A DNA stretch of 64,000 nt from Tubulanus polymorphus (Eukaryota; Animalia; Nemertea). The notes beneath the pieces were generated by a model. It was not told the origin of the DNA. It did no database searches and saw only the letters and a list, made by a program, of their open reading frames with translations. The position numbers were made by a program, and so were the translations under genes. The DNA is taken from the NCBI RefSeq assembly GCF_964204645.1, contig NW_027437446.1, positions 1 through 64,000 on the forward strand. The letters run 5' to 3'. Below, in pieces: positions 1,196 to 23,855 of this stretch. Numbering within the stretch: position 1 is the first letter of the stretch; every line of letters starts with the position of its first letter.

Positions 1196-1209
1196 GACGG
1201 ACGACGTCT

Positions 1210-1785: not shown

Positions 1786-1918
1786 AAAACGCCGGGTGAA
1801 TTACTATTTCATAAACACATGTATTTTATTCTACAGTCAGTATCGATTTCAACATTCCAAGCCGCTCCTAAGAGGAGCGGTAAGGTATGCGCGGAATGCA
1901 CAATCGAAAACTAAGAAA

Positions 1919-2344: not shown

Positions 2345-2706
2345 ATTATAACACTGAAGGTCTTAGATATCAAGAAATGTAATCTCGATTGTATATATCT
2401 GTTTTAATATTGTATTGATTACTGTTAACTAAGTATTGCGCAATAACCGGTCCGATTGGACCGCTTTTCTATTGTTCTCCATTGTTCTATTATCGATCGC
2501 TAAAATTTACATAATAAATATATGTGTTTATGAAATAATATTTCCACCAGTCGTTTCGGTGAATTGATTTTCAGTTGAGGATTTATTATCGAGGATCCGA
2601 AATGACTTATCAAAAGCAGCGAGGAATGAAAAAGGATGACGTTAGTCGAAGAAATGGAAGAGGATTCTAAAATGTTAATCAATTTTAATAAAAATTTGAT
2701 TTATAA

Positions 2707-2922
2707 ATGGAAAGGAATGATGAATACAATAAAAAACTTATTTGGGGTTGGAAAAATTTAAGGCCTTTAGAAAAGAAAGAAAATCAAATCAAATCTAATA
2801 AACTAGATTTACAGTTATATTTAGAACAGTTAACAAAGGCAAAGAAATTTATTGATCAATGGAACAATAATCCAAATAATGAACAATATGTTGAGGAATT
2901 TGATATCAAGGATCCGAAATGA
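2707..2922 (+). CDS. Small protein resembling the C-terminal half of an HNH/endonuclease VII-like nuclease
   Basis: WKNLRPLEKKENQIKSNK matches the NLxPLxxxxNxxKxxK tail of viral HNH nucleases. The catalytic DH half is absent. It has its own upstream motif and a TAAATG start. Confidence 0.5.
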   Translation: MERNDEYNKKLIWGWKNLRPLEKKENQIKSNKLDLQLYLEQLTKAKKFIDQWNNNPNNEQYVEEFDIKDPK

Positions 2923-3223
2923 CTTATCTGGACAGTTATAATTACTGCTCCTAATAGATAAACAAAAGTAGTGAGATATCAAATAGAATTCAAATAAAAT
3001 ATATTAAAAATTACACATCTTCAACTAACTAGTATTAGTTATTGTTTTTTTAATATTTTCTTTTCAAAAAAGAATACTTTATATCACAAATAAAAAATAC
3101 TAAAAAAAAAATAACTAATACTAAAATTCTTTACCTTTAACTAAGCTAGTATTAATCTAAAGAGATACTGGTATCATTTTATAATACTTATAATATTTTT
3201 CTTATTGAATTTCTCTAATATAA

Positions 3224-3832
3224 ATGTCAAAGAAATCGAGCAAGAATAGTATTGATATTGAAAAAACATTAGATGATTTAGGTATTAGTGATAATAAGGA
3301 TATTCCAACCAAAATTGAAAATAATATTCAAGTTAATTGTAATATAGATTATGAATACTACTTATATTGTAAACACCATCTTGAGCTACTGATTGCTAGC
3401 GGAAAGTGTAAACAATTTTTAACTAAGACTATTACTTTTCAAGAATTAGATGCTATGAAACCAGATAAAGTAATAAAATATTTTAAGATTTATGAAGAAG
3501 CTAGATTAGCTAGAATAAATGATTCTATTTCAGATGGTATTGTCAAATGTTACTCTAAGTTATGTAACCAGTTAATACCAATTGATGATGAAAATAAATT
3601 ATATAATGATTTGAAAAATGACTACTTAGTTATGACTGAATAACAAAAATGGGTTGGTTATGCTTCATTTCAATTAGGATCGGTTATGACATTAATTTCT
3701 ACTGGTGTCATAACATTTTCGAATATCAAGCCTATGGAATATAAATCGGGTAAGAACGAAACAGATGTACTACAACCAAATGGTGAAACAGAAAATGAAT
3801 CAGAACAAAAATTAACTAAAATAAATGAGTGA
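3224..3832 (+). pseudogene. Polinton conserved hypothetical protein with one internal stop (3641-3643)
   Basis: The 139-aa ORF continues in frame after TAA (QKWVGYASFQLGSVMTLISTGVITF..., hydrophobic) to TGA at 3830-3832. Confidence 0.7.
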
Positions 3833-4197
3833 TAGCGTTAAAGAAAAAGGCTAGATCCGAGAAACAAATTAAATGGGCAAAGGAATTGGGAAAAAGATCT
3901 TCAGAATTACAAAAAGCTAAGAAAAAGAAATTAACTGATATAAATGAATCACAGAAATTATCTGATATTGATTCAAATAATAATCCATCTGATTCTTCTA
4001 ATAGTGGAAGAAATAATTACTTATATAATACAATTGGATTAGTAACAGTTATTATATTATCTGGTGTAATATATAAATCAAAATTCAAATCTGATTATAA
4101 CAATAATGATTCCGATGATAATAAACCTATTATAACAGAAAATAAGTCAAATCATAAAGTCATTGAAACTAAATCAAAATTATTATTAATGGATTAA
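3825..4197 (+). pseudogene. Basic N-terminus plus single transmembrane protein, probable 5' frameshift
   Basis: The TAAATG start (ATG 3825) is out of frame with the 3829..4197 ORF. That ORF has KKKARSEKQIKWAKELG and a TM segment TIGLVTVIILSGVIY. Confidence 0.6.
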
Positions 4198-4203
4198 AAT
4201 AAG

Positions 4204-5292
4204 ATGAAAAAAGAACAATATTTAAGAGAGCTATATTATAACCCAGAAAGTGAAGTATCATATTCTAACGTTTCAGAATTATGGAATCAAATTAAATCTG
4301 ATAATGAAAATGGTAATATAAAATATAGTGAATTGAAATCATGGTTACAAAATCAACCAACATATCAAATACACAACAAAATGGATAAAACTTATTTAAC
4401 AAGAAAAGTTATGGTTTCATATATCGATCAACAATGGCAAGCAGATTTAATTGACATGAAGAACTTAGAGGAATACAACAAATGATATTTCTGGATATTG
4501 AATGTTATGGACATATTCAGTCGATACGCATGGTCAATTGCAATCAAAAATAAAACTGGAATAGAAGTTACAAATGCTTTTAAATCAATATTTAAAGAAG
4601 TTATTCCAGATAAGATACAATTTGATGAAGGTAAGGAATTTTATAACAAACATTTTAAAAAACTATTATCTGATAACGATGTAGAATATTTTTCAACACA
4701 CTCAGATAAAAAAGCATCTATTATAGAAAGGTTTAATAAAACATTGAAAACTAGAATGTGGAAATATTTTACTGCTAATGAAACATATATTTATATCGAT
4801 GTATTAGATGATTTAGTGAAAGGTTATAATAATTCTAAACATAGTTTTATAAATATGAAACCTATACAAGCTAGAAAAGAAGATAATTCGGTAATAGTTT
4901 GGAATAATTTATATGGAGCATTTGTTACACATGATTTCGGTGAACCTAGATTTAAAATTGGACAACACGTTAGAATATCTAAATATAGAAAAACCTTTTA
5001 TAAAGGTTATACCCCTAATTTTACAGAAGAAATATTTAAGATTAAAAAGATAATATTAACTAAACCATTTGTTTATAAACTAGAAGATTTAAAAGATGAA
5101 GAAATATTAGGTTATTTCTATGAACAAGAATTATCACTTGTACCAAACCCAGTTGAAATAGAATACAAAATAGAAAGAGTATTGAAAACAAAAACTCTTA
5201 AAGGAAAAAAGTATTCTTTGGTGAAATATAAAGGATATGATGTTAAATTTAATGAATGGATTTTATCTAGTAAAATTAAAAATATAAATTAA
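4204..5292 (+). pseudogene. Retroviral-like (rve/c-int) DDE integrase with C-terminal chromodomain, single nonsense codon
   Basis: ORFs 4204..4485 and 4498..5292 are in frame and separated by one TGA (4483-4485). DDE motifs: WQADLIDM, IQFDEGKEF, IIERFNKTLK. Chromodomain: YKIERVLK..YSLVKYKGYDVKFNEWI. Confidence 0.95.
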
Positions 5293-5296
5293 TAAA

Positions 5297-5704
5297 GATT
5301 TATTTATATTTGAACCGCATAATATATTAGTTACTGGTGTAACAAACTGTGGTAAAACACATTTCATATTAGATTTGTTAGAAACTATTTAAAAGAATCA
5401 TTTTGATAGTATAATATTATTCTGCCCTACTTATGAAATGAATAAAACATATAATAGAGATATAGTTAAGATAAAAAAGTTTATTATATTAAATCCTAAA
5501 ACAGTAAAAGAAAATTTAGATAATTGTATAAAAATAGCAATTGATACTTATAAAGGATCAAAGACATTATTCATTGTAGATGATTGCGCAAATTTACATG
5601 ATTCTGAATTACATGATGAATATATGAATAAATTAAAGAATAATAAAGGTTCAAAATTATTACTGAGGCTTCAATTTCCATATGAATATAAATTTGTAAA
5701 ATAA
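5297..5704 (+). pseudogene. A32/FtsK-like DNA packaging ATPase, disrupted
   Basis: Walker A NILVTGVTNCGKT is encoded at ~5321-5359, upstream of the tracked ORF. It is followed by a stop and a frameshift, then CPT and Walker B TLFIVDDCA. The arginine-finger region appears deleted. Confidence 0.88.
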
Positions 5705-5727
5705 CTATTTATATATCTATCTATCTA

Positions 5728-6045
5728 ATACGTATTAAATACGTATTAGATACGTATTAAATACATTAATACTTAAAACCCCCTTTTTAAAATAAATATT
5801 ATTTATACAATTTTCAACCAATTTATTTTTATTTTTTCAACTAATATATGAATAAGTTTGAAAATAATAAAGGTTATTTATTATTACTGAGGTTTCTAAT
5901 ATAAATTTGAAAAAAATATAATTTAAGGTATTTTCAAATAATACGTATTAAATACGTATTAGATATGTATTAGATGTGTATTAGATACCTTAATACTTAA
6001 AACCCCCTTTTTAATTTACTATTTTTTTATACAATTTTCAACCTT
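5728..6045. repeat. Duplicated ~100-bp block of AATACGTATT palindromic 11-mers between convergent gene blocks
   Basis: (A/G)ATACGTATTA x3-4, then TAATACTTAAAACCCCCTTTTT and TATACAATTTTCAACC, at ~5728-5820 and ~5940-6043. Confidence 0.85.
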
Positions 6046-6047
6046 TA

Positions 6048-6932
6048 TTACTTTTTGAGTGTTAGATAATTACTTTCTGAATCACTTTCATCATCACTCT
6101 CCAATTCATCATCATACCCCATCAATTTATTCAAATGCTCTACCGTATCTTCATAAATAATTGGTTTATTGATATACTTATTAGTCATCTCAACTATATC
6201 TTTATTTTCTGATTTAAGTTTCATAGAATCTTTATTATCAATGCGCTTTCCTGTAACTATATTTTCATTGTCATATTTCTTAGTGTTTGACCTTAATATT
6301 GTATTTACAATGCTTGATTCTAATATTTTTTTAAGAGCAGATAAATGTAATTCCTCATTACTAGGTTCCTTAGATAAAAATTCACCTAATAAATCTTTAT
6401 ATAAATCTTTACCATCTACTTTTTTATTTGAAACAAACTTTGTTACATAATTAAATGGGTGTTCTATAAATTCTCTTATACCAACACGATCTATAACATT
6501 AATAATATGTGAATTTGTATTCATATGATTATTCCAATTTGATGGAGCGTTTGAAAATTCACCTTTACAATAATCACAATAATTTCTATTTTCACTAATA
6601 TTTAATATTATTTCATTATTAGATGTAGAAGGTATTACATTATTAGATGTAGAAGGTATTACATTATTAGATGTAGTAGGTATTGCATTATTAGATGTAG
6701 AAGGTATTACATTATTAGATGTAGAAGGTATTACATTATTATCAATTACATTACTTAAATTATCAACAACTTCACTTTTATTATCATCTATTTCTATTAG
6801 TTTAGTTTTATAAATTTTGAAAATAGGATCAAATATCAAAGCTATATTACAAGGTATTTCATAATATAAACCATCATTATTTTCATGTGTATCGATGTAT
6901 GGAATATGTTTATATACTTTACATCCTTCCAT
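6048..6932 (-). CDS. Accessory protein with 8-aa tandem repeats, a C2H2 (matrin-like) zinc finger and an acidic tail
   Basis: Intact 294-aa ORF with (NNVIPSTS)x5 from a 24-bp repeat at ~6616-6740, CDYC..WNNHMNTNSH, and DDELESDDESDSES. Confidence 0.8.
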   Translation of the reverse strand: MEGCKVYKHIPYIDTHENNDGLYYEIPCNIALIFDPIFKIYKTKLIEIDDNKSEVVDNLSNVIDNNVIPSTSNNVIPSTSNNAIPTTSNNVIPSTSNNVIPSTSNNEIILNISENRNYCDYCKGEFSNAPSNWNNHMNTNSHIINVIDRVGIREFIEHPFNYVTKFVSNKKVDGKDLYKDLLGEFLSKEPSNEELHLSALKKILESSIVNTILRSNTKKYDNENIVTGKRIDNKDSMKLKSENKDIVEMTNKYINKPIIYEDTVEHLNKLMGYDDELESDDESDSESNYLTLKK

Positions 6933-6964
6933 TTATTATATAAATTTTTATTAAAGTTAAAATT

Positions 6965-8210
6965 CTAATACATAACACTATTTAATTGAGAATTTACAAT
7001 ATTTAATTGCGCGTCAGATATAATATAAATGTGCATTTTAAAATTTTTGATTCCTTTATTCTTTGACATGGATAATTGTATTCCATCTTTAGTGTTCTGT
7101 AGTTTTTTTCCAGAACCATGTAATGAATTATCCTCTGTTGTTCTAAAATCTAACCATAATGCATATTTATTACCGGTATAATAATCAATTTGATTAATAT
7201 TACAATTTTCAGATGATTTCACTTTTTCATTCATAAAATGTTTTCTAATTTCTGGCCATTGATCTATCATTCTCATTCCTTGACAAAATATTTTATTTGC
7301 TATTCCTTCGATAGTTATATCTACTTTTGTTATTTCAGGATTATAATAATTATCAACATTTATTGCACCATTAGTATATGTTGCAATGGTAAAAAATATT
7401 AATATACCTTTTATAGATCTTCTTGGGAAGTTAATATTCTCATTAATTATTTCATCATTTGCATTAATAGTTACAGTTTTAAATTTATCAATATAATCAT
7501 ATGATAATGAAAATCCTTGATTGTATTGAGTTTGAATTATACTTGAAATATTTTCATTAGTTACTGTATCATATTCTAAACATATTCGATAATTTATAAC
7601 CCATATCTTTATTAACGCTAGATATTACAATTTCATTAACAGGAGCAAATGTTATTTCGAATATAACATCTTCTTGAATTGCGTATTTATATAAAGGTGC
7701 ATTATTATTTATCAATTCAAAATCTAATGGAATTTTATATTTGCTTCCATATATACTTTTTATCAATTTATCTATAGCATTAGTTAATATTGCATTATGT
7801 GCTTCCGATCTTAATTTATTTTGGTTTTCTGATTGGATGCCTTGAAATATCATATTATTTCTATTTTCTTTAGTTAACCATAAATCTTTATAATGCATAA
7901 ATAAATTATAATCATCTAATGAGAAAACTGTTTCTGGACCAATCTTTATTGTAAATTTTTTAATCAAATATCTTCCAACATTATCAACAACATAATTATT
8001 ATTATTACCAGTTACTTTTATATCGGCTGATAAATAAATACTATTTGAAACATAAAAAGTAGTTTGTGTTAATCGAGGGATTCTAACATATAAAGTTTCA
8101 TCAGGATTAATATTAGAAGGGTTATGAGTAATTATATGATGTGATCTTTCTGCTTTAATAGCATTAGATATTCTATGATTCTTAGAAGGATTGATATAAC
8201 TCCCACTCAT
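6965..8210 (-). pseudogene. Double jelly-roll major capsid protein, single frameshift near 7583
   Basis: N-terminal ITHNPSNINPDETLYVRIPRL. After the frameshift the frame is open from LEYDTVT through NFPRRSIKGIL, YNPEITKVDITIEG and YALWLDFRT to HIYIISDAQLNI. About 415 aa, beta-rich, in a Polinton context. Confidence 0.8.
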
Positions 8211-8230
8211 TTATTTAACAAAAAAATCAA

Positions 8231-9669
8231 TTATTTATTTTTTATCATATTTACTAACCCAAAAATAATTGCACTTACAACTGTAATTAAAAATAAAATT
8301 ATATGTTCAGCAGCAAAGTTAATAATGTTTCCTGCAGATTTCAATATAAAACCAACAATTGATGCAATAATTCCTGGTAATGCTGCAGCAGATTTTTTAG
8401 ATAGTTCCCATAAATATTTTGCTAATTTTTTTAAACCATCTTTAACTTTATCTTGTATAGAATTATTATCATTCGGGGGTTTATCCGGTTTATTGGGAGT
8501 AGGAGTAGATTTCAGTGAATTTGATATAGCTAAACCTATTGTTGTAAATAACATAGTTACAGCTGTTAGAATTGAAAGAATTGTTATTCCTTCTAATTTG
8601 AATAATAATTTTATTCTATCTTTCAATGATATTTCAGAATTTTGTTTTATCATCAAATTTTTAAAAATAACTTTAAATCTATTAATATTATAATCATATG
8701 ATTTTAATAATATATCTCTTTCACCTTTTTGTACTTCTAATTTATCTTTTAAATTATCAATTTCTTTTTCTAAACGTAATTCTTTTTGCCTATATTCCAT
8801 TTCACCAATTGCTTGATGGTCTAAATCAGACTTTAGTTGTTCTATCTCTTTATTTTTATCAGTTAATTCTTTTTCTAAAGTACTAATTTTAATATCTCAT
8901 ATATTTATTATGTGCAATTTCATCAGCTTCATTTCTTATACTAATAATTTCTCTAATTGCTTCATCAGAAAATATATTTAAATCTTCTAAGTCTTGATCT
9001 GTTGCATCAAGTAACCCATTTTGTAAAAGTTTTTCAGTTTGAACTTGATTTAACGGTTGATTTAACTTTACTAGTTTTGGAATTCTCATCTTCATTAGGA
9101 ATTATTTTTAGTCTTAAATTTTAAGTCTTAAATTAATTATCTTCAAAAAATAATCATTTCTTCGAGTAAATTCTCTTCTATTTAGAATTATATCTTGTTC
9201 TGTAACATCAGTTATAACATCATTAATGATTTTCTTAATTCTAGATTGTTCTAATTTAATAAAAGTTGATTTTGTTATTATTTTATCGGGACTTTTATTA
9301 GAAGAAATCTTAAAATAATAGTCATCTTTCAATTTCCAATAATAATCACCATTTAAATATTTCAAATCTTTTACCAAATAATTCGCACCTTTATTTGTTA
9401 TATTGAAACCAGATCTTTTTAACATTGGTTTAAAATCACGAATAATTTCATCATATTCGTATTTTTTTTGCCAATTCTGGTACTTCATTTTCAATATTTA
9501 TCTTTGAATGTGTTTTATCAATATATTCAGGTGTAGTTAAATTAGAATTATATGCTGTTTTATTATCATTACTAAAACTTGTTTCATCAAAATCAGGTGG
9601 TTGTTCATCACTTATACCGGGAGCGTCACCAAAAGTATCAATTCCAATATCTTCTCCACCTTCTGCCAT
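8231..9669 (-). pseudogene. Fragmented large gene: acidic N-terminus, coiled coil, C-terminal multi-TM membrane protein
   Basis: Four consecutive same-strand fragments (9451..9669, 9114..9494, 8889..9095, 8231..8800); only the first has a TAAATG start. The C-terminal part has hydrophobic helices ITILSILTAVTMLFTTIGLAI, ALPGIIASIVGFIL and IILFLITVVSAIIFGLV. Confidence 0.65.
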
Positions 9670-9690
9670 TTACATAATAAAAAATTAAAA

Positions 9691-10957
9691 TTAAAAATTT
9701 AATATTCCACCTATAAAAATTCCTATAAAAGTTAAAGCTAATTTAGCATTTTCATGGGATTTATTATCATTATCAGTTTTAATTATATCATGTTGAATAA
9801 TATCAGTTTTTATATTTTCCGATGTATTGTAATCTTTTATTTTAGAATAATTATTTAATTTAATATTCTTAGTTTTAGTTTCTGTTGATTGAATATGTTT
9901 TTTATTTTTTCACCTTCCATTAATTTTGGAGCAGTGATAATCTTTTTATTTATATCATTTAATCCAAATGAATTATTTATTGTTGCAGTTTTAATTAGAT
10001 TATTATAACCAATTATGTTTCTCATCTTTAATACTAAATCATTAGAAATAATTAATAGATTAGGGCCTATACAATAATTTAGTCTTACATGAGATTTATC
10101 TAAATAACTTTGATATCTTACAATGTTTTCTGGAATCGATCTATTTTTATCATTATGAATGGAATCTTCAAATAATACTTTGAATTGTTTCTGCGCATCA
10201 AATGATGTGTTATCAGTTCCAATTATTGGGGATCTTGTTTCAACTTGCGCACCTAAAATACAAATTAAATAAGTTCTAATAGATTGATTTATTCTTTGTA
10301 TACCAGCTTTAGTAAAACCTTCACTATTTTCTAAAATGAAATTAACCCAACCATTATTGTTTTGTTGTTGTATATTATTATAATATTTTGGTAATTCATT
10401 CCAATTTAGTGTTCTTATATCTGAATTTGTTATTATTTTTCCAAATTCTTTAGTATATAATATTCCTAATCCACCCATTGTTCCAATTTTTGCTCTAAAA
10501 CCTTTATTTGAATTAATATCAAATTCATTACATATTTTATAAAACTTAGAAATTCTAATTCATCTAATATTAATTTTATTTGAAAATATGTATGAAATCT
10601 AAAAAGTGATAACATCAATGGTAAACTTGGTTTGTTTAAATGATCATTCCAACTAATTCCACATCCTGTTGTTGCGCAATAAACAGCAAAATTTAATTGG
10701 TTCTGCCAATACTTCATATTAGATTTTAATAACCATTGTTTTGCCTCATTTAAATTTTTAAAATTAATTGTATACACATGAAATATATTTTCCATCTTTA
10801 CATGAAAATTATTACTTTCAGTAACATAAATATATAAATCAATTAATGAATTTAAAACTTCATTTCTTTATGTAATATCTTTATTAAAATGTATTGCTGG
10901 AATATTATATTTAATTGATTTATTATATTGGAAAGCTTTTGGAAAACTATCTACCAT
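9691..10957 (-). pseudogene. Polinton conserved hypothetical protein (LNFAVYCATTGCGIS motif) with C-terminal TM, disrupted
   Basis: A TAAATG start at 10957 is in frame with 10466..10795 across one stop. It continues in 9855..10478 and ends LALTFIGIFIGGILNF* at 9691. Confidence 0.7.
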
Positions 10958-11049
10958 TTATATAATTAAAAAATTAATAATTTATTAATTCTTTTAATAA
11001 TTTATCTTGTTCTACAACTGTTTATTATTGTTCTAAACTGGCCATTTAA

Positions 11050-11430
11050 ACTTATAATATAATCTAGTGTATTTTTTAATTTCTTATTTATTATTGATTT
11101 CTTTTATATTAGTTTTAATTTTTTCTTTATTACTTTTTATATTTAATTTTGAACTTATACCAGTTAAAACACTTGAACTTAATCCTAATACACCAATTGA
11201 TATAGCTAAAGGTGTTAATGGGCTGAATATTGCTAAAAATGTTATTACAGAACTAATTGTAACCGAACCACTAATAATAAGATAATATATAATTCTAGAT
11301 TTTAAATATTTTTCTTTTTTATCCTTAAGTCACTTTCAAATTCTAATATTTGTTTTTCCAAATATATTTTTAATTTAGTTTTATTAATATCATGAGGAAT
11401 AATATCAATATTATCAACTTTATCTTCCAT
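11050..11430 (-). pseudogene. Small two-TM membrane protein, frameshifted
   Basis: TAAATG start at 11430 (MEDKVDNIDIIP...). The downstream frame gives IIYYLIISGSVTISSVITFLAI..AISIGVLGLSSSVLTGI. Confidence 0.55.
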
Positions 11431-11450
11431 TTATTTAGAAAAAAAAATTA

Positions 11451-11873
11451 CTAATTAGTAAACTTATAAGCAACAAATATAACAATAACTGTTCCACCTA
11501 AAATCCAAATTATTTCATATTTCTGTTGTTCTTTACTTGGGGTATAATAATCTGATATTGTAGGTTTATGTAGATGTAATTTTTCTTTATTGGTTACTGC
11601 GTTATATAAACTCATTGCATCATCAACTGATTGAAAATCTCTATGTGAAATCTTTTGATCATATGATTCCTTGTTAATATAATCCATATAGTTTTGTCTC
11701 TTTTCTCTGTATTCTTCTGCTGCTTTATTGTATTTTTCTAATGCTAAGTTATGTCTTTTTTGTTCTGTTAATGATCCATTTTTATCAATATGCTTAAATA
11801 AATAACCACCACCAGTAAAGGCTAAAGCGTTAACAATTGCTGATCCTATAATAGTTATAACTGCAGAAGCCAT
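11451..11873 (-). CDS. Polinton conserved protein with N- and C-terminal hydrophobic segments
   Basis: Intact 140 aa: MASAVITIIGSAIVNALAFTGGGYLF, EQKRHNLALEK coiled coil, C-terminal TM. Confidence 0.8.
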   Translation of the reverse strand: MASAVITIIGSAIVNALAFTGGGYLFKHIDKNGSLTEQKRHNLALEKYNKAAEEYREKRQNYMDYINKESYDQKISHRDFQSVDDAMSLYNAVTNKEKLHLHKPTISDYYTPSKEQQKYEIIWILGGTVIVIFVAYKFTN

Positions 11874-11897
11874 TTATTTAGCAAAATAATTATGTAT

Positions 11898-12119
11898 TTA
11901 TATGGGAGGAATATATTTTCGTTTTTCCAAATAATCAATAGTTAAATTAGATAAAGTAACTGCTAATGTTAATTTTAAAATATCATTTATATCAAATCTA
12001 TCAACATTAGCACTTCCCATTTTAAAAACTTTTTTTAATACCATTGAATAACCAACAGTTCCAACTGATAGTAATGCGCCATTATATAATCCAGTTATTA
12101 TCCACTTATTATCACTCAT
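11898..12119 (-). CDS. Small hydrophobic protein
   Basis: Intact 73 aa with two hydrophobic stretches. Its ATG directly follows the upstream gene's TAA. Confidence 0.7.
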   Translation of the reverse strand: MSDNKWIITGLYNGALLSVGTVGYSMVLKKVFKMGSANVDRFDINDILKLTLAVTLSNLTIDYLEKRKYIPPI

Positions 12120-12461
12120 TTATTTATCAAAAAAATTACTATCATCAAAATATTTAGTTATCTTATTTATGATCATTTCAACATTTATTTCATTACTACT
12201 TTTATGATTATCATATATTTTGGTTAATATGTTTTTAATATCATCAATAATTCCATCTTCATTTAATTCATAATATTCTAAAGGTGTTTTAATTAAATCA
12301 ATTACTTTTTCTATATTATGATTTTCTTTATCAATCACTGATGCATTGTTAAATGATTTACTTTTTATATCAGTAATTACATCATTTAGTTTAATTCTTA
12401 TTTCTTTACCATGTTTAAAATCAAACCCAAAACATATACTCGGTCCAACAGTTATATTCAT
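12120..12461 (-). CDS. Hypothetical protein
   Basis: Intact 113 aa in a tightly packed gene block, TAAATG start. Confidence 0.65.
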   Translation of the reverse strand: MNITVGPSICFGFDFKHGKEIRIKLNDVITDIKSKSFNNASVIDKENHNIEKVIDLIKTPLEYYELNEDGIIDDIKNILTKIYDNHKSSNEINVEMIINKITKYFDDSNFFDK

Positions 12462-12477
12462 TTATATAGTGGAAAAA

Positions 12478-13239: not shown

Positions 13240-13253
13240 TTATTTTACATATT

Positions 13254-13607
13254 TTATTCGAAATCTATTTCATGATGCCCCCTTTCATTCTTACCTTTGT
13301 ATACGAAATAGAAATCACCAGAACATAATTCTTCTAGATCTTAACTTGATAATCTATGAAATCTATCCGGTAAATATGTTCTGAATTTATATGTATTTCC
13401 TTTTAATCCTTCATTTTCTAAGTGTATAACTAATTTATCTCCATATTTGTTAGTAACTCTATCAATATTTGTAAATAGATATTTCTTATGGATTATTAAT
13501 TCTCTTAACTTCTTAAATTTATAATCTACTGATTTGACATTTGAAGTATCTTTTATTCTATCTAGAAATGATTTGTTGCTCTCACTGTGTGTTTGTTTAC
13601 TCTCCAT
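13254..13607 (-). pseudogene. Small beta-rich protein (possible OB-fold ssDNA-binding), one premature stop at 13341
   Basis: Reads through TAA to DLEELCSGDFYFVYKGKNERGHHEIDFE*. The paralogue at 23222..23564 has GAA at that codon. The TNKYGDKLVIHL..TYLPDRF..FVYKG pattern is seen; the fold is inferred. Confidence 0.65.
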
Positions 13608-13637
13608 TTTAATAACATATTTTTTATTAAAATTTGA

Positions 13638-16600
13638 TTAACACGTTATAATCCTATTCATTATTTCCTTCTCTTTTGTTTCTTCTCTTTTAAATTTTAA
13701 GTATTCATCTAAATTACAACCATAAGCAACTGTACAATCATCTAAAATATATCTTTTATCATCAAATGGGTTTAGACTAATCTTTTCAATTTCTTCAATA
13801 AACATTTCATGATCTTCAGATCTTAAACATTTCATTTTATGTTTTCTAACTTCTTCATTGAATATACAATTGATGTAATCTTTGAAATGAATATTCTTTT
13901 CTACTACACTTTTGGTTATTCCTTTTAACTTTTTAGCTTCATGTTCTTTAGTTTTATATGAATACTTTTTAGATCTAATACCGATGAACTCTATCATTTC
14001 TTCACCGCCTAATTCATCTTTGAATTTACCGGAAATTTTTTTATTATCATTGCTAAACAATTCATGATCTTTAGGATGGTTACTGAAATCAAAATGATGT
14101 TTTAATGTTTTTAAATCATCAGTTATGTTATCAGTTTTTATCTTTAATATGTAACTGTCAGTATCAAAATATAGTATTTCTATATGTTTTTCTCCGAAAA
14201 GTGGTTGTAATACATTATAATAGAATTCATACATTAGTAATTTTGATAATTCTAAAACTGATGCTCCAACATAGATTGGTTTATTAAATTTCATTGATGT
14301 TCTTCTCATTTTAACTGCGGCAAAATTTTCATCAAATATTCTGTTACCAATGAACTTAGGATATGTTTGTAAATGTCTAATTCGTTTACCATTACTTACT
14401 TACTCAATATCATTTCTATTTCTAATATTTTCACAAGTCTTACCATAGAATGCATTATTCATTAACTTGAAGAAATCTTTCTCGAAATCAGTTTTAGCTT
14501 TAGTTCTCTGTTTGGTGTTAAAATCTATATATTTTTCTAACCACTTAGATTGACTGAATGAAATATATCTATGTACTTTTTTTAGAACCATTCCTTGTTT
14601 TAGATAAAACTTTAACATTCTATAATGTACTACATAATTATATTTATCTTCTTGAGTTACCATTAACTTTTCTGTATGAATATGGTTTTCGGGTTTAATT
14701 CTTTTTTGGTAATTTGATAATTCTTCATGAGTTACAGTTTTATGTTCTGGACAGTATGCTAGATTTCTAGATTTAAATTTAATATGTTCAGGATATTCTA
14801 AGTCTACAACAAAAAAGTAACCAGTCTCTGAATCATCTGCAATATCTAGGATTCTTTTCTTCCAATCAAATTTATCATTATTTTCACGTTGTAAAACTTC
14901 ACTTATTTCAAATACTCCATAAGGCTGTGGTTCCATCATTGCCCAACCATACAAATTATTTGCATCTATATATAATAACTTATATCCGGGGTTATCATTT
15001 ACATTGAAATATCTATCGCCTAATACACCTGAAACTCCTCCTCTTATAGATTTTTCAAATAATAATAATTGATCTATATTTGTTAACAAATCCATTTTTA
15101 TATCTGTAAATTTTAATCCACAATCCCATGTTAAACCTGGACTTGAATAACAATGACAAGGATCAATAGTGAAATATTTTAGGTTTACATCTCTAAACCT
15201 TTCAAATAAATCGGTTAATAATAATACATCTGATTTTGAATATGAATCTACTAATTGTCCATGATTTTCTATTTTGAAATGATTCCAAATATTCAATGTT
15301 CTATTATATACTTCATCTTTAACATATTCATTTTTTAATTCATCATAGAATTGTTCTTTCAATAATTCAGTTATGTTAAAATCATTATGATTTTTATAGA
15401 AAGAATATGGAATTGCGCCTTTATATCTCATTAATTGGAAATCATCATTATTTGGGTAGTGTTGCTTTAATATTTTTAATTCATCATCAACTAATGATTT
15501 TGATAAGTTATCTAATGAACTATTTAAAAATCTATATGAATCTATAAGTCTTAGGCCACCAAATTGGAATGATATATAATTCTCAGATGTTTTAGCTAAC
15601 ATTTTAAATTTATAAGTTGGTATTTTATCTTTTGATCTATTTGAATTTAATCTTTCTATTTCATTATTAATTTCTTCTATTTTATGACATAACTGTTTGA
15701 TGAATAAATGTGCATCATATCCTGATAGATTATGAAATATAACTGGTACAAAGTTAATTTTCTTAGCTTGTAAGTTACAATTCTCATGCGCAGCGCCTCT
15801 AAACTTTCCATTCAAATGATCATGGTCTCTTACTTTTTTATCTTTATAATTAAATATCTTTTCACAATAATAACATTTATCTGCAAACGCAAATTCTTCT
15901 TTATCTTCTTCTGTCATAATTATTTCTTTATTTGTATTCAATAATTTACTACATCTTATTTCATATTCAATTAATAAGTCACAAAAATGATTGATAACAT
16001 TTTCATTTCTATAATGATAATATTCACTTTCAATTAGTTCTGGATAATCAGATTTTATATATAACCCGAAAGCAGCAGCTGATTGATGAATCTTTTTAAT
16101 TGTATTTGTTATTGGTGGTTCATCTGAAAAATTATTTTCATTAGAATTTAATTTCTTTCTTTTATAATATATTTCTTTTCTATCTTGATCAGTTAATTCT
16201 TTATTTAATGATTCAAAATCTCCATATATAACAAATGGTACTTTATTTTTGTAATCATATTTTTTGAATTCTAATATTTTATCTTTTTCATTTGGTAAAA
16301 CTAATTTACAATAATCATGATTTTCACATAATTGTTTATGATTTAATAATGTACTTTCATTACTGAATTTATGTAAACATTTTCTACATAGATATATTTT
16401 ATTATGGTGATCACTTTCTGTTCTAAAGAATAAATCTATTTGTTTAATCCACATATAATGATTTTCATAATATAATCTATCTATAACATCATTTGAATCA
16501 TAATCTTTTGATAGGAATAAAGCTTCTAATGTATAATGTTTTATATTATTACCTTTTGTATTTGGTAATTTGATTAAATCAAATACATTTATCTTTATAT

Positions 16601-17162
16601 TATTATCTCTTTCTATTTTTGGGATGTTTTTAATTATAACAGGATACTTATCTATCTTATAATTATTTTCAAACGGTTTATAATGAGTTAATCTAAAACT
16701 ATGTGTAATATCTTCCGTTGGATGTAAGCAACTTATAATTGTCCATAGAAAACATTTATCATCTTCATTTTGTACATTTATTACAGCATTAGTTTTAAAT
16801 GGTAGTTTAATATAACTTGATGCTTCAATATCTGGTTCTTTATAATATGATACATTATTTTCATCAATTGGTTTTGATTTAGTTAACTTATTATATTTTG
16901 TGTTATAAACATGAAAAGTCATAAATATTATTTCATCGAATATTAAACCTGATCCTTCAAAATATTTCTGTTCTATTTTAGTTTTTACTTCATTATAATA
17001 TTTATCTAATTTATCATCTATATGTTGTTTATATATAATATGTTGTGAATGAGAATTTATATTATATATTGGTTTATCGTCAGATTTTATAAACTTTACT
17101 TTAACTGATATACTAATTTTAGGGTATTCAACATCTATTATTATTTTTATTATTTCTTTCAT
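13638..17162 (-). pseudogene. polB: Protein-primed family B DNA polymerase (pPolB), single nonsense codon at 14400-14402
   Basis: ExoI YGDFES, ExoII FHNLSGYDAH, ExoIII YSKSDV; polymerase motifs YIDANNLYG, KLMNNAFYGK and YFDTDS; EndoVII-like insert CYYC..RDHDHLNG..HENCN. The two tracked ORFs are in frame, and P2 has TTA at the stop codon. Confidence 0.96.
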
Positions 17163-17188
17163 ATTTTCTAAATGTTTTTTATTTTCTT

Positions 17189-17671
17189 CTAATGTTTTTC
17201 CTTTACGAAATTTAAACTCGATAGCTGCTGGACCAATATCACTTTAAATGCTTCGGTTATCTCTATATCTTTTTTATTATCCAATAAATTAATATATTTT
17301 CTTACATCTTCCATGTATGGTCTTTTATTGTTTAATTTATTTTTTATGCTTTTAATTGTCTTCTGCTTCTTATCATTATCTTTATCAAAATAATTTTCAC
17401 CTAAAATATCATTATTCATATTTCTAATATGACTTTTACATTTTAAATGTTCATTATAATATCTTTTATCACTGAATGATAGATTACATGTATCACATTT
17501 GTATGTTTCTTTTTCATTCTTTAATTCATCTAATTTAGTTTCTAATATATCATCTTTATATTCTAGTTTCAATTTATTCTCTAAATGTGTTTTAGTTTTA
17601 TTGTGTCTTGCTTTTTGGGATCTATCTATATTGATATTACATGTTGGGCAGTAGTACTTATTTGCTTCCAT
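17189..17671 (-). CDS. Double C2H2 zinc-finger region, probably the frameshifted N-terminus of pPolB
   Basis: CPTC..HNKTKTH and CDTC..HLKCKSH. Adding one A at TTTAAAG (~17245) gives an open frame FKSDIGPAAIEF...HLENM into PolB. Confidence 0.75.
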   Translation of the reverse strand: MEANKYYCPTCNINIDRSQKARHNKTKTHLENKLKLEYKDDILETKLDELKNEKETYKCDTCNLSFSDKRYYNEHLKCKSHIRNMNNDILGENYFDKDNDKKQKTIKSIKNKLNNKRPYMEDVRKYINLLDNKKDIEITEAFKVILVQQLSSLNFVKEKH

Positions 17672-17936
17672 TTTAATACTAAATTTTTTATTAAAATTGA
17701 TTTTAGAAGTTCATTGATTTAAATATGAATTATTTTTAATCACACTTTACTAACACTATTAATGTTTAAAAATCTAACTCATACAAATATAAATATTGAA
17801 ATAATGTTTAAAATATATCTATATATCGATTCTATAAGAGCTCGTACTCTCGTACTCTGATCTGAAAGCCTACTTTTCTAATTACTTATATATGTTATTC
17901 ATTCATATTTTATCCATGTAAATGAATATTTGGTTT

Positions 17937-18085
17937 AGAAATTTTCCAAATATGAAAATAACAATAATTTCTACTTGAATTAGGAGTGTACGCGACTAAT
18001 TCAAGTAGAAATTATTATTATTTCACATTTGGAAAATTTCTCGACCGTTCGACCTTTGGTATGAAAGCCTATTACCCCTATTACT
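17937..18085. repeat. P1 right terminal region: ~46-bp-stem hairpin plus terminal motif
   Basis: AGAAATTTTCCAAA..CTACTTGAATTAG (17937-17983) pairs with CTAATTCAAGTAG..TTTGGAAAATTTCT (17996-18041). It is followed by the terminal 45 nt, which resemble 23811-23855. Confidence 0.85.
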
Positions 18086-20261
18086 AATATTGATAGTTTG
18101 TGATTGTTCTGGCTCCATTTATTATACATGTTTTTTACTAAAATTTGATTAACATGTTACAATCCTATTCATAATCTCATTTTCTTTTAACTCTTCTCTT
18201 TTAAATTTTAAGTATTCATCTAAATTGCAGCCATAGACGACTGTATGAATTCCGTCATCTAATATATATCGTTTATCATCGAATGGGTTCAAACTAACCT
18301 TTTCTATTTCTTCAATTAACATTTCGTGGTACTCAGATCTTAAACATTTCATCTTATGTTTTCTAACTTCTTCATTGAATAAACAATTGATGTAATCTTT
18401 GAAATGAATATTTTTTTTTCAGCAACGCTCCTGGTTATTCCTTTTAACTTTTTAGCTTCATGAATTTTGGTTTTATAACTATACATTTTAGATCGAATTC
18501 CAATGAACTCCATCATTTCTTCGCCTCCTAATTCATCTTTGAATTTACCGGGCACCTTTTTATTATCATTGTTAAACAATTCATGACCTTTTGGATAGTT
18601 ACTAAAATCAAAATGATGTTTTAATGTTTTTAAATCATCTGTTATATTATTAGTTTTTATTTTTAATGTGTAAGAATCTGTATCAAAATATAAGATTTCT
18701 ATATGCTTTTCTCCAAAATGAGGTTGTAAAACGTTATAGTAAAATTCATACATTAATAATTTTGATATTTCTAAAACTGATGCTCCAACATAAATTGGTT
18801 TATTAACTTTCATAGAAGTTCTCCTCATTTTAACTGCAGCTAAATTTTCATCAAATATTCTGTAAACAATAAATTTAGGATATGTTTGTAAATGTCTTAT
18901 CCTTTTACCATTACTAACTAACTCAATATCATTTCTATTTCTAATATTCTCACAAGTCTTACCATAGAATGCATTATTCATTAGTCTGAAAAAAACTTTC
19001 TCAAAATCAGTTTTAGCTTTAGTTCTCTGTTTGGTGTTAAAATCTATATATTTTTCTAACCATTTAGATTGACTAAATGAAATATATCTATGTACTTTTT
19101 TAAGAATCATTCCTTGATTCAAATAGAATTTTAAAATTCTATAATGTACTACATAATTAAATTTATCTTCCTGAGTTACCATTAACTTTTCTGTATGAAT
19201 ATGATTTTCAGGTTCAATTCTTTTTTGATAATTTGATAATTCTTTATGTGTAACAGTTTTATGTTCGGGACAGTATCCTAGATTTCTAGATTTGAATTTA
19301 ATGTTTTCAGGGTATTCCAAGTCTACAACTAAAAAGTATCCAGTATCTGAATCATCTGCAATATCTAGAATTCTTTTCTTTCAATTAAATATATCGTTAT
19401 TTTCATACTGTAAAACTTCAGTTATTTCAAATACTCCATAAGGTTGTGGTTCCATCTTTGCCCAACCATATAGATTATTTGCATCTATAGATAATAACTT
19501 ATATCCAGGGTTATCATTTACATTGAAATATCTATCACCTAATATGCCTGAAACACCTCCTCTTATAGATTTTTCAAATAATAATAATTGATCTATATTT
19601 GTCAATAAATCCATTCTGTAAATTTTAAACCACAGTCCCAAGTTAAACCCGGGCTAGAATAACAATGGCAGGATCAATATTGAAATATTTTAGATTTACA
19701 TCTCTAAACCTTTCAAATATATCAGTTAATGATAATACATCTGATTTTAAATATAAATCTACTAATTGTCCATGATTTTTTATTTTGAAATGATTCAAAA
19801 TATTCAATGTTCTATTATAAACATCATCTTTAACATATTCGGATCTTAATTCATCACAAAATTGTTCTTTTGATAATTCAGTTATGTTAAAATCATTATG
19901 CGATTTATAAAATGAATATGGAATCACGCCATTATATCTCATTAATTGAAAATCATCATTATTTGGGTAATGTTGTTTTAATATTTTTAATTCATCATCA
20001 ATTTTGGTATTATCTAATGAAGTGCTTAAAAATCTATATGAATCTATAAATCTTAGACACCCGAATTGGAAAGATATATAATTTTCAGATGTTTTAGCTA
20101 AAATTTTAAATTCATAAGTTGGTATTTTATCTTTTAATCTATTTGAATTTAATCTTTCTATTTCATTATTGATTTCTTCTATTTAATGACATAGCTGTTT
20201 GATGAATAAATGAGCATCATAGCCTGATAAATTATGAAATATAACTGGAACAAAGTTAATT

Positions 20262-21528
20262 TTTAGCATTGGTTGACGTCTATGACGTCATGCCAATGCT
20301 AGTAAAATGGATCGAAAATAGTAGTACGAAAAAATAGCACCGACTCTTCTCATTTTCATAGTAACTTCAAATTGTCACTCCGTTCCCGTAAAACATTAGA
20401 AACTGCTGAAAATGACTAAAAAATGTTTCAATTATTCCCCACAACATAGCGTCGCTAGATTTCTGATTTAATGGTCCAAAAAATTATTCGATCGCATTTT
20501 TCTCGTTCATTATCTGGTAGATGAGAGCGGGTTAAACAATCGCGTAGCGATATGTCAGCATTAACATTGGCAGTAAAGAATGGGGAACAGCCTCTTCTGA
20601 ATAGAAAAAAATAAAATTATGTACCTCTTACGGTAGCACCCTCTTACGCACTCGGCAGAGATTCGCTTTGTAATGCGCGCCGGGAAAAAATACCTTTTAT
20701 TATCTTTTCCATGCGTTAAACAACAGTGATTGAATTTACGCGTTGTTTGTCGTAAATTGCAATATTGCGATGGTTATTTGCCGCTGCTGTAGTTTTTTGG
20801 AATTGAATCGAGCGGCCTCGGTAGCTCAGTGAGATAAGGCGTGATGCTGTTGAATCCACTATCAATGCTGAGTGACAAGTGGGTTCGAGTCCTGCTGGCT
20901 GATAACAGTGTGCGGGCAACACTTCAAAGGCCGTGCCGTCGTGAGGTTAAATGAACAATCCAATAGGAATAGTCTTGGGAAACCAAGATGCAAACGACGT
21001 ACGTAAAGCCAAACAAACAAAAAGACAAACAAACAATCATCAGCCGGCCTCAGTGACACCAACGCCGGCAAATTCGACGTTTTGCATGCGTACATGCATC
21101 AGAGCTTGGAGCTCTAAGATCAGAGGGTCTTGCAATTGCATTCAGAAAAATCGTTCTGTTTTTGTTTTCATTATTCAGTGGGGCCTAACAGTTCATGCGT
21201 AAAAATGGGTTTTTGTATCCAAATCTTGATTGATATAAATATCTTGGCTGGGACATGATGGAAAACATCAGAATAAACTAGTTTCGTCTTTTTAACAGAA
21301 TCGCATTAATGTGGTTTAACAGTACAAATAGCCTAGGCTAAATCGTTCGGCAGAAAATAAATTCATTTTCAGGAATAAAATCGTACTAGACAAATAGACC
21401 TTTAAGTCTGTGGTCCTCCCAATCAACATCGTCATATAGAAGATTTGCCGGCAGATGTAAAACATTATAACCACTTAATACCACAGTATAATCTACCAGT
21501 GCTTCAAAGCCCATGGGCCTCTTGTTTT
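20262..21528 (+). mobile_element. Non-autonomous Helentron-like element (HINE/DINE-1 type)
   Basis: Inserted in a T-run of PolB. It has a 5' palindrome TAGCATTGG..CCAATGCTA (20264-20301), a 3' subterminal inverted copy TCTACCAGTGCT (21492-21503), a short hairpin GCCCATGGGC (21509-21518) and terminal Ts. It is more GC-rich than the flanks and non-coding. Confidence 0.75.
20815..20900 (+). other. tRNA-derived sequence with Pol III A and B boxes (SINE head or tRNA pseudogene)
   Basis: A box TAGCTCAGTGAG at 20822 and B box GGTTCGAGTCC at 20882. The spacing is longer than in an intronless tRNA and the acceptor stem pairs poorly. An (AAAC)n-like tract lies at ~21010-21035. Confidence 0.7.
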
Positions 21529-22789
21529 AGCTTATAAGTTACAATTTTCATGTGCTGCACCTCTAAAATTTCCATTAAAATGATCACGATTATTAACTTT
21601 TTTATCTTTAAAATTGAATATCTTTTCACAATAATAACATTTATCTGGAAACCCAAATTCTTCTTTATCTTCTTCTGTAATTATGATTTCTTTATTTGTA
21701 TCCAATAGTTTACTAAACTTCATTTCATATTCAATTAATAAGTCACAAAAATGATTGATAACATTCTCATTTCTACAATCATAATATTCACTTTTAATTA
21801 GTTCTGGATAATCAGATTTAATATACAACCCGAAAGCTGCAGCTGATTGATGAATCTTTTTAATAGTATTTGTTATTAGAGGAACTGAACAATCAATTAC
21901 ATCATTAGAATTTAATTTCTTTCTTTTATAATATATTTCTTTTCTATCTTGATCAGTTAATTCCTTATTTAGTGATTCAAAATCTCCATATATTACAAAT
22001 GGCACCTTATTCTTGTAATCGTATTTTTTGAATTCTAATATTTTATCCTTTTCATTTGGTAAAACTATTTTACAATAATGATGATTATCACATAATTGTT
22101 TATGATTTAATGATGGACTCTCAGTTCTGAATTTAGTTATATATTTTCTACATAGATATATTTTATTATCAAAATCATTTTCTGATTTGAAAAATAAATC
22201 AATTCTTTTAATCCACATATAATGATTCTCATAATATAATATATCTATAACACCTTATGTATAATGTTTAATATTATTACCTTTTGTTTTTGGTAATTTG
22301 ATTAAATCAAATACATTTATCTTTAAATCATAATCTCTTTCTATTTTTGGGATATTTTTAATTCTAACAGGGTAACTGTCTATCTTATAATTACTTTCAA
22401 ATTGTTTATAATTTGGTAATCTAAAACTATGTTGTTTATAATCTTCAACTGGTTGTAAGCAACTAATTATTGACCATAGAAAACATTTATCATCTTCATT
22501 TTGTACATTTATAACAGCATTAGTTTTAAATAGTAATTTGATATAAACTTGATCCATTTATACTATCATCTTTATAATATGATAAATTATTTTCATCATT
22601 TGGTTTTGATTTAGTTATTTCATTTAATCTATCATCTATATGCTGTTTAGATATGATATGTTGTGAATGGGAATTTATATTATATATTGGTTTTTCCTCA
22701 AATTTTATAAATTTAACTGATATGCTAATTTTAGGATATTCAACATCAGTAATTATTTTTAAAATACTTTTCATATTTTCTAAATGTTT

Positions 22790-23187
22790 TTTATTTTCTT
22801 ATGTTTTACCTTTATAAAACTCGATAGCAGCTGGGCCAATGTCACTTTTAAATGCTTCAGTTATTTCTATTTCTTTTTTATTATCTTATGATTAAATATA
22901 ATTTCTAACTCCTTCCATGTATGGTCTTTTATTTTTTAATTTATCTTTTATTCTTTTAATTGTCTTCTGTTTGTTATCATTATATTTATCAAAATAATCT
23001 TCACCTAAGATATCATTATTAATATTTCTAATATGATTTTTAGATTTTAAATGTTCTTTATAATATCTTTTATCACTGAATGATTGGTTACATGTATCAC
23101 ATTTATATATTTCTTTTTCATTCTTTAATTCATCTAACTTAGTTTCTAATATATCATCTTTATATTTTAACTTTAATTTGCTTCGAT
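22790..23187 (-). pseudogene. P2 zinc-finger region (paralogue of 17189..17671), first finger deleted
   Basis: Nucleotide similarity to 17180-17580. The start is mutated to ATC, and the sequence jumps from EAN directly to KLKYKDDILE. Confidence 0.8.
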
Positions 23188-23221
23188 TTTAATATCAAAT
23201 GTTTTATTTAAATTGATTTTT

Positions 23222-23564
23222 TTATACAAAATCTATGTCTTGGTGCCCTTTTTTTCACTCTTACCTTTGTATATGAAATAGAAATCACCAGAACATAATT
23301 CTTCTAAATCTTCACTTGATAACCTATGAAATCTATCTGGTAAATATGTTCTGAATTTGTATTTATTTCCTTTTAACCCTTCATATTCTAAGTGAATAAC
23401 TAATTTATCTCCATATTTGTTAGTAACTGTGTCAATATTTGTAATTAAATATTTCTTATGAATTGTTAAGTCTGTTTACTTTTTAAAATTATAATCTACT
23501 GATTTGACATTTGTAGTATCTTTAATTCTATTTAAGAATTCACTGTGTATTGTTTACTCTCCAT
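23222..23564 (-). pseudogene. Paralogue of the 13254..13607 small gene, frameshifted
   Basis: High nucleotide similarity to 13260-13630, including the upstream motif. Confidence 0.85.
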
Positions 23565-23607
23565 TTTAATAACATATTTTTTATTAAAATTGATTTTAGA
23601 AGTTATT

Positions 23608-23855
23608 CATATATCTATGTACAAGAGGTACGAGTAAGAATCCAAGAATTCTTACTTTCTTACTCGTACCTCTCGTACTTAGATATATGTTATTCATTTA
23701 TATGTTATTCATTTATCTGAATATTATTAGAGTAATTGGGAATAAGTTGTTTCAAGTCAAAGGTTGAGGGCGAGTGAGTAGAAAAATGTATTTCCTTTTT
23801 TTATATGAGCTCGACCTCTCGACCTTTGGCTTGAAACAAATTATTCCCAATTACT
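23608..23855. repeat. P2 terminal region: two long hairpins
   Basis: 23608-23640 pairs with 23657-23689. 23731-23773 (AGTAATTGGGAATAAG..) pairs with 23811-23855 (..TTATTCCCAATTACT). Confidence 0.88.

Follow-up and report, generated by a model that had tools for sequence, protein, structure and literature searches.

Poxvirus-type TAAATG start signals in a Polinton-like provirus of Tubulanus polymorphus and in its capsid clade suggest transcription by a helper virus

The first 64,000 nucleotides of contig NW_027437446.1 of the nemertean Tubulanus polymorphus (assembly GCF_964204645.1), referred to below as the window, contain a Polinton-like provirus, most of whose genes begin at TAAATG, a hexanucleotide described from poxvirus promoters. 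The Polintons of animals could be viruses in their own right, transposons, or satellites that depend on a helper; to our knowledge, hyperparasites of poxviruses are known from co-sequencing only. The main copy of the element, at 2400-17950, is AT-rich (about 24% GC), and most of its genes are broken. Its gene set comprises a protein-primed family B DNA polymerase (pPolB) in three pieces, an integrase with rve and chromo domains, an A32 packaging ATPase, a capsid gene and about ten further genes. A second, partial copy is 85-89% identical to the main one over the polymerase. The features are as follows (ORF, open reading frame; the A-core and T-run promoters are predicted and are described further on, as are the relatives).

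2400..17950, no strand assigned: decayed main copy of the Polinton-like provirus, with approximate ends and about 24% GC; multi-copy according to independent DNA reads
2680..2922, plus strand: A-core promoter (core, 12 nt and TAAATG at 2704-2709) and a 71-aa ORF whose start has no aligned N-terminus
3197..3643, plus strand: conserved gene, function not known, TAAATG start at 3224, shortened by a stop (relatives' alignment)
3798..4194, plus strand: conserved gene, function not known, TAAATG start at 3825, frame broken (relatives' alignment)
4204..5292, plus strand: rve integrase with chromodomain, interrupted by a stop, its start in the main copy without TAAATG (domain search, relatives' alignment)
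5288..5704, plus strand: A32-type packaging ATPase, broken (start codon gone, internal deletion), TAAAT kept at the start position (relatives' alignment; Pox_A32 on the relative L004)
6048..6959, minus strand: A-core promoter (core, 12 nt and TAAATG, ATG at 6932) and a zinc-finger-like ORF of 294 aa; L002 and L005 have a promoter of this class too
6965..8237, minus strand: major capsid protein gene (double jelly roll), in pieces, T-run and TAAATG promoter at 8210 (relatives' alignment, structure model of a relative)
8231..9696, minus strand: conserved gene, broken, its C-terminal part with hydrophobic segments, T-run and TAAATG at 9669 (relatives' alignment)
9700..10984, minus strand: conserved gene of the 442-aa type, broken, T-run and TAAATG at 10957 (relatives' alignment)
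10977..11457, minus strand: small two-helix membrane-type gene, broken, T-run and TAAATG at 11430, the ATG at 11045 being internal (weak SLATT-like match on a relative)
11451..11900, minus strand: 140-aa conserved gene, open, T-run and TAAATG at 11873 (relatives' alignment)
11898..12146, minus strand: 73-aa hydrophobic conserved gene, open, T-run and TAAATG at 12119, the TAA also being the stop of the upstream ORF (relatives' alignment)
12120..12488, minus strand: 113-aa ORF, TAAATG at 12461, T in 5/7 upstream places (relatives' alignment)
12478..13266, minus strand: probable minor capsid protein of 253 aa, open, A-core-like promoter (11-nt spacer) and TAAATG at 13239 (hhalign 57%, E 1e-4, weak)
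13260..13634, minus strand: small OB-fold-like gene, possibly a single-strand DNA-binding protein, broken, A-core, 12 nt and TAAAATG at 13607 (Z 5-6.5)
13638..17698, minus strand: pPolB gene in three pieces, its product with zinc fingers at the N-terminus; TAAAATG at 17671 preceded by an A-core and 12 nt (domain search)
18050..23730, minus strand: second, partial copy, with the start of the OB-fold-like gene at 23564, pPolB pieces and a truncated start at 18118; about 1.3 kb of host-like DNA interrupts it near 20260-21530

The original prediction, made from the letters of the window, held that most genes of the element start at this signal, and all 17 sites that it cited (14 TAAATG and three TAAAATG) are present, as is TAAGATG at the start of the integrase. 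Most of the ATGs concerned are indeed gene starts, but the one at 11045 opens an ORF of only six codons inside a 144-aa gene starting at 11430 (a relative's ORF aligns to 11430-10977), and the sites at 18118 and 23564, though real, belong to the second copy and are not independent of the first. The ATPase, onto which relatives align from 5288, had been missed. The starts in the window were fixed independently of the motif by aligning intact relatives onto it; TAAATG was then found at 12/16 starts and TAAA(A)TG at 14/16, compared with 17/372 and 24/372, respectively, of the other sense-strand ATGs in 2400-18200 (p 4e-12), bearing out the expected contrast between true starts and other ATGs. Two of the sixteen, 2707 and 17671, are each the first ATG of an ORF for which no N-terminus aligns, and leaving both out gives 11/14 by hand count. 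A T occupies position -12 from the ATG at 15/16 starts and at 108/372 other ATGs, and the T-runs already pointed out upstream of several starts are found as six or seven T in the seven bases from -16 to -10 at 8210, 9669, 10957, 11430, 11873 and 12119. A second class of upstream sequence, TTTAATAA(-like)-N11-13-TAAA(A)TG, new to this analysis, precedes 2707, 6932, 13239, 13607 and 17671. The poxvirus early-type motif occurs at 0/16 starts, an absence that would be expected for DNA arriving without packaged early machinery. Among the copies in the host, the 12 initiator bases of 11873 and 12119 show no variation at a frequency of 8% or higher, as against 30 variable places in 311, numbers too small for significance.

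The motif reaches well beyond the window. Using a capsid alignment, 22 metagenome loci were retrieved, and their starts were taken by a rule blind to the motif, that is, as the first ATG of non-overlapping ORFs of at least 70 aa. TAAATG stands at 56/65 starts and 34/1111 internal ATGs in the 15 closest loci, and at 50/57 starts in the 12 non-redundant ones; the latter figure leaves out L003 and L013 (near-duplicates, 3/3 each) and L014 (broken frame, 0/2), together with L018-L022, distant decayed fragments without intact genes (0/21). Of the seven misses among the 57, only one is genuine; two are internal ATGs that follow a break, and in the other four TAAAT lies no more than two bases from its customary position. 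In a quick capsid tree the TAAATG loci form one supported clade (Shimodaira-Hasegawa-like approximate likelihood ratio test, 98) with L015 outside it, and within this clade members with as little as about 52% protein identity, or a GC content as high as 44%, still keep the motif; it stands at 9/11 starts of the three loci of 36-44% GC.

The surroundings of the hexanucleotide are equally regular. Counted from the initiator T, a T is found at -9 in 47/50 of the clade's TAAATG starts and an A at -15 in 80% of them; a purine follows the ATG directly, at +4, in 49/50, and at least five T lie within -13 to -7 in 28/50, as opposed to 9/75 other TAAATG. Neighbouring divergent ATGs are separated by 19-34 nt, and 7/9 such pairs have TAAATG on each strand (clade and L024, two pairs being near-duplicates of others), and since T-runs are present between divergent genes too, they are not just terminators. 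The A-core class is found in the window on the polymerase, the OB-fold-like gene, the 6932 gene and the probable minor capsid gene, and on the matching genes of L002, L004 and L005. Vaccinia late promoters consist of TAAAT(G) and a conserved T that precedes it by about 10 nt, while in vaccinia intermediate promoters a 12-bp spacer separates TAAA from an AT-rich core (PMC11980589, PMC12917281); TAAATG overlapping the start codon is described for both chordo- and entomopoxviruses (PMC3061580 for the latter). Compared with these descriptions, and not with a poxvirus genome, the T-run class matches the late promoters, and the A-core class with its 11-13-nt spacer may match the intermediate ones. 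Shared with poxviruses are the start-overlapping TAAAT(G), the T about 9-10 nt upstream and, possibly, the A/T core followed by an 11-13-nt spacer and TAAA; the difference is that here these predicted promoters stand on a small integrating element with no detected polymerase.

Control lineages have few such starts or none. The sister lineage L015/L016, of 30% GC and with six gene families in common, has TAAATG at 0/8 starts, the Maverick-type L030/L031 at 0/29, L032 at 0/14 and the virophage-like L023 at 0/13, while L033 (25% GC) has it at 1/11, L034/L035 at 1/19 and three AT-rich large-virus loci (17-30% GC) at 3/23. A purine at -3 is found at 27/29 starts of L030/L031 and at 7/57 of the clade's. 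Conservation in the capsid clade, the positional T, the two vaccinia post-replicative classes, the broken -3 purine rule and the absence of the motif from an AT-matched sister lineage all support the earlier view of the signal as a poxvirus-type promoter. One locus outside the clade, the unrelated Polinton-like L024 (38% GC), has TAAATG at 7/7 starts and 0/140 internal ATGs; judged by these starts, therefore, the TAAATG wiring is not confined to one clade, and L024 is possibly a second origin of it. The stretch L024:1-9034 encodes pPolB, an A32 ATPase and, in a 503-aa ORF whose N-terminus looks protease-like by eye, rve and chromo domains.

The coding strands of these groups also differ in composition. 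Homopolymer runs of A and of T are rarer than in synonymous shuffles (z -3 to -7) in the coding strands of the clade (window, L001-L017) and of L030/L031, and this avoidance is not seen in L015/L016 or in the large-virus loci. Depletion of TTTTTNT, the poxvirus early terminator, in the clade's coding strands (15 vs 42) was rejected as evidence, as A-runs and plain T-runs are depleted equally, and in L030/L031 too; the T5NT pattern follows the stop in only 2/20 convergent or terminal genes of the clade. Depletion of AATAAA was set aside likewise, as it does not separate the groups. Compared with shuffles, L015/L016 have fewer AATAAA (5 vs 10.5) and fewer TAAAT (8 vs 16) and keep the -3 purine; the numbers are small, and this TAAATG-free sister lineage may be adapted to the nucleus. 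In L030/L031, TAAA lies within 12 nt of the ATG at 23/29 starts vs 43/451 internal ATGs, often with an AAAAAT-like block further upstream, and these Maverick-type elements may use a compact viral-type promoter as well.

The protein evidence places the element among Polinton-like viruses in the broad sense. DNA_pol_B_2 is matched in the window at E 1e-13 and rve at E 6e-5 (2e-9 to 2e-10 in relatives), and Pox_A32 is matched at E 5e-11 by the ATPase of L004, that of the window being broken. The minor capsid assignment in the window is a weak match (hhalign 57%, E 1e-4), the OB-fold match of the 13607-type gene (Z 5-6.5) lies below the trusted Z, and the element also has zinc-finger ORFs to which no role is assigned. 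The capsid of the relative P0005, 73% identical to the N-terminal half of the window's, is modelled with confidence as a double jelly roll (mean predicted local distance difference test 93) that matches capsids of nucleocytoplasmic large DNA viruses (NCLDV) and virophages at E 1e-16 to 1e-12, so that the major capsid protein is, on this model, a double jelly roll. The Maverick capsid family PF21738 is not matched by P0005, P0036, P0047 or P0064 at E 0.1, whereas L030 and L031 match it at E 1e-41 or better, and profile alignment of the clade's capsid with theirs gives only 15% identity; by sequence, then, the window's capsid lies outside the usual Maverick type. No adenovirus-type cysteine protease was matched in 25 ORFs of the window or in the relatives' ORFs scanned, no relative being complete, and capsid and ATPase searches for relatives returned nothing from IMG/VR, GTDB or a phage collection. 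Pfam and PDB sequence searches found no RNA polymerase or poxvirus transcription gene in the element, several of whose ORFs are without assignment, and no poxvirus-derived gene was found in it. At 10340-10981, L004 has a gene that the window copy lacks, for a deoxynucleoside kinase (dNK, E 2e-31), preceded by a TAAATG promoter of the T-run class, and the PDB matches listed for it include no poxvirus.

In an independent DNA run of the same organism, 88,687 of 12.9 million reads fall on 1000-20900, mostly 90-99% alike and at several-hundred-fold depth, and the element is for this reason a dispersed multi-copy family in the host. Short inverted matches (2677-2717 with 17662-17702) and opposite-strand joints in the reads suggest terminal inverted repeats, with no intact pair or target-site duplication defined. 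Long, near-perfect hairpins lie at or near the apparent ends of the element (17937-18041, 23608-23689 and 3030-3123). At 1215-1830 and 2516-3425 the window has an inverted duplicate of the element's left part (72-86% identical) flanking a 141-aa ORF (1919-2344) that matches nothing in Pfam or PDB. Between the convergent ATPase and 6932 genes, at 5619-6049, a stretch of about 210 bp is duplicated in direct orientation (77%) and contains 11-bp repeats, tandem and self-complementary, and palindrome-like sequence is found at the same junction in L002 and L005. The host-like insertion at 20260-21530 of the second copy, of 31-36% GC and with a tRNA- or SINE-like (short interspersed element) stretch visible by eye near 20810-20900, is a repeat, as deep reads at 20256-20900 indicate; ARAGORN found no tRNA gene in 1-24500. 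From 23894 to the window's end at 64000 there extends a strongly A-skewed array of about 336 copies of a 118-bp satellite (45% GC), whose long ORFs are repeat artefacts. No host gene was identified within the window.

Taken together, these data make it probable, on the pattern of the sequence, that the lineage lives as a satellite and owes its transcription, in trans, to the RNA polymerase of a co-infecting virus of pox type, meaning a member of Poxviridae or an unsampled close relative. From the motif, its conservation, the two upstream classes, the controls and the gene content we infer start sites, leaders, timing and helper as follows. The polymerase of the helper would initiate at the AAA within TAAATG, slip and add a short 5' poly(A) leader, which would supply the A at -3 that the DNA lacks (by analogy with PMC6211774). 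Transcription would take place in the cytoplasm, the A-core promoters of the polymerase and the OB-fold gene firing at the helper's intermediate stage and the T-run promoters of the capsid and membrane-type genes at its late stage. Virophages are known to carry the late promoter of their helper (PMC6723459). The element would replicate itself by pPolB and use its own capsid and ATPase for packaging; the rve integrase would bring it into the germ line. The copy in the window, broken in most of its genes, cannot itself serve as an active provirophage.

Several points weigh against this proposal. Neither a helper sequence nor a transcript, a mapped start site or a 5' poly(A) leader was found, the one run that may be RNA yielding four short pieces that speak neither for nor against the proposal, and a scan of IMG/VR with the long A-core motif gave four matches, apparently due to chance, none of them pox-like and none with TAAATG at most starts. 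The A-core promoters of the window are in part duplicates, several being 79-85% alike over 37-70 nt, and hence not independent, and the class is found at 5/16 window starts, the strict core at only 4/50 starts in relatives vs 1/75. By sequence, promoter class maps only loosely on gene function: the probable minor capsid gene has an A-core in the window and L004 and a T-run in L009/L017, the OB-fold gene an A-core in the window and a T-run in L004, and the integrase and ATPase starts fit neither class well. The conserved T, counted here at -9, is the "10th" in a review, an offset of one base, and L024, of a different lineage, has a T at -12 in only 4/7. A looser TAAA no more than 12 nt from the ATG precedes many starts of other small DNA viruses (L030/L031 23/29, L033 8/11, L034/L035 11/19), and since it is enriched in most controls, the distinction lies solely in the strict fusion with the start codon. 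A provirus in the nucleus would also have to come within reach of a cytoplasmic polymerase, and the proposal offers no route for this. Finally, yeast linear plasmids use a TAAAN initiator with a polymerase of their own (PMC6211774), and genes of a coral polintovirus are expressed in host RNA data (PMC11131425).

Four other explanations were weighed. TAAATG might serve as an initiator for host RNA polymerase II, fixed in this clade and giving leaderless or nearly leaderless mRNAs, perhaps with an element-encoded factor, so that the element would be autonomous in the nucleus. Its integration and copy number, the zinc-finger ORFs, the coral expression data and the frequency of compact AT-rich starts in related elements all agree with this. 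However, transcripts starting 1-3 bases before the AUG would translate poorly, a T is an unfavourable base at -3, where control elements retain a purine, and the spacing fits the vaccinia promoter classes; nor is AATAAA depleted in the coding strands (3.4-4.4 per kb, 144 vs 152 expected; L030/L031 likewise), and we regard a host initiator as rather unlikely. A trans-acting cytoplasmic polymerase could also come from a source other than a pox-type virus, such as a giant virus (asfarvirus-like or not) or a linear plasmid that encodes one, given that no poxvirus has been found with these elements, that the yeast virus-like elements add 5' poly(A) leaders at TAAAN (PMC6211774), and that basal egovirus sequences are on record from marine sediments, their promoters not being described in the text covered. 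Against it stand the description of start-codon-overlapping TAAATG from poxviruses and the lack of clear enrichment, at window starts, of the published late motifs of asfarviruses (TATATA) and Cafeteria roenbergensis virus (CroV; TCTA) and of the mimivirus early octamer (3, 4 and 0/16 starts vs 19, 71 and 1/372), which together make such a source quite unlikely.

That TAA-ATG acts in translation, as an in-frame stop before the AUG that blocks read-in or couples stop and restart on read-through transcripts, is suggested by the tight packing of the genes and by 12119, where the TAA ends the upstream gene. Among the relatives' starts, however, TAA is an upstream stop in 1/50 only, TAG-ATG or TGA-ATG never occurs, and all 50 have TAA vs 39/52 gene ends (binomial p 6e-7); the motif is also found in divergent pairs without an upstream gene, and the T at -9 would be left unexplained. 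We consider this very unlikely. Chance, through AT richness and an A-rich start-codon context, has in its favour the 24% GC of the element and the 65 TAAATG in the window, and is refuted for the comparisons run by the background of 17/372, by 9/11 at 41% GC and by the AT-matched controls (0/8, 1/11 and 3/23), which leave it a negligible probability. Transcription by a pox-type helper probably remains the best fit to an observation that is itself real.

Among known systems, the virophages mavirus and Sputnik (Virophaviricetes) are likewise small viruses with a double-jelly-roll capsid and the helper's late promoter upstream of their genes, and mavirus also has pPolB and an rve integrase and integrates (PMC6723459); the present element differs in having the poxvirus TAAATG and not the CroV TCTA, a capsid not of virophage type by sequence and a host inferred to be multicellular, and its dependence on a helper is a prediction. 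The Polinton-like viruses (PLVs) of entomopoxviruses (AHEV_PLV1/2, CBEV_PLV1 and Ca_PLV1; Barth et al. 2024, PMC11296320), to which the original prediction had alluded, are also proposed poxvirus hyperparasites. They were found in occlusion bodies and have an adenovirus-type protease and a tyrosine recombinase or no integrase (PMC11296320), three of the four lacking the rve integrase-pPolB pair, whereas the present element has both of these, no protease found and promoter evidence without a co-isolated helper; no link between the two was found. A term search of the main text of PMC11296320 gave zero occurrences of promoter, TAAAT and motif. Maverick/Polinton groups 1 and 2 (adintoviruses, Polintoviricetes) share pPolB, the rve-chromo integrase, the A32 ATPase, a double-jelly-roll capsid and multi-copy integration, but are set apart by the PF21738 capsid and by 0/29 TAAATG starts in L030/L031, and the element, with no PF21738 match and no protease found, may belong with the animal elements placed outside the main Maverick groups by a 2026 preprint (10.64898/2026.06.19.733378). 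No report of TAAATG promoters in Polintons was met in the literature searched, which takes in PMC5294985 and PMC11788076 and leaves subscription papers and preprint supplements outside its scope; in a term search the word promoter was absent from the text covered of PMC8502044, PMC11131425, 10.1101/2024.03.23.586382, 10.64898/2026.10.13.758929 and 10.64898/2026.06.19.733378.

Of the yeast linear plasmids pGKL1 and pGKL2 the former relies on the latter for transcription. Both are AT-rich and share with the element pPolB, a TAAAN initiator and 5' poly(A) leaders of the kind proposed here; they differ in having their own polymerase system, no capsid or integrase, and a need for an upstream conserved sequence (PMC6211774).

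The six-base signature can be scored in any genome and separates Polinton-like elements into pox-wired and other lineages, pointing in the former to the type of helper to look for. If the helper reading is true, the promoters predict undiscovered pox-like viruses in hosts with none known. The full picture can be offered only tentatively, as an attractive possibility that we would not yet back: a widespread clade of integrating Polinton-like viruses would be the virophages of poxvirus-type viruses, their programme having two stages tied to intermediate and late transcription of the helper, and their endogenous copies may be a heritable defence, like mavirus in Cafeteria.

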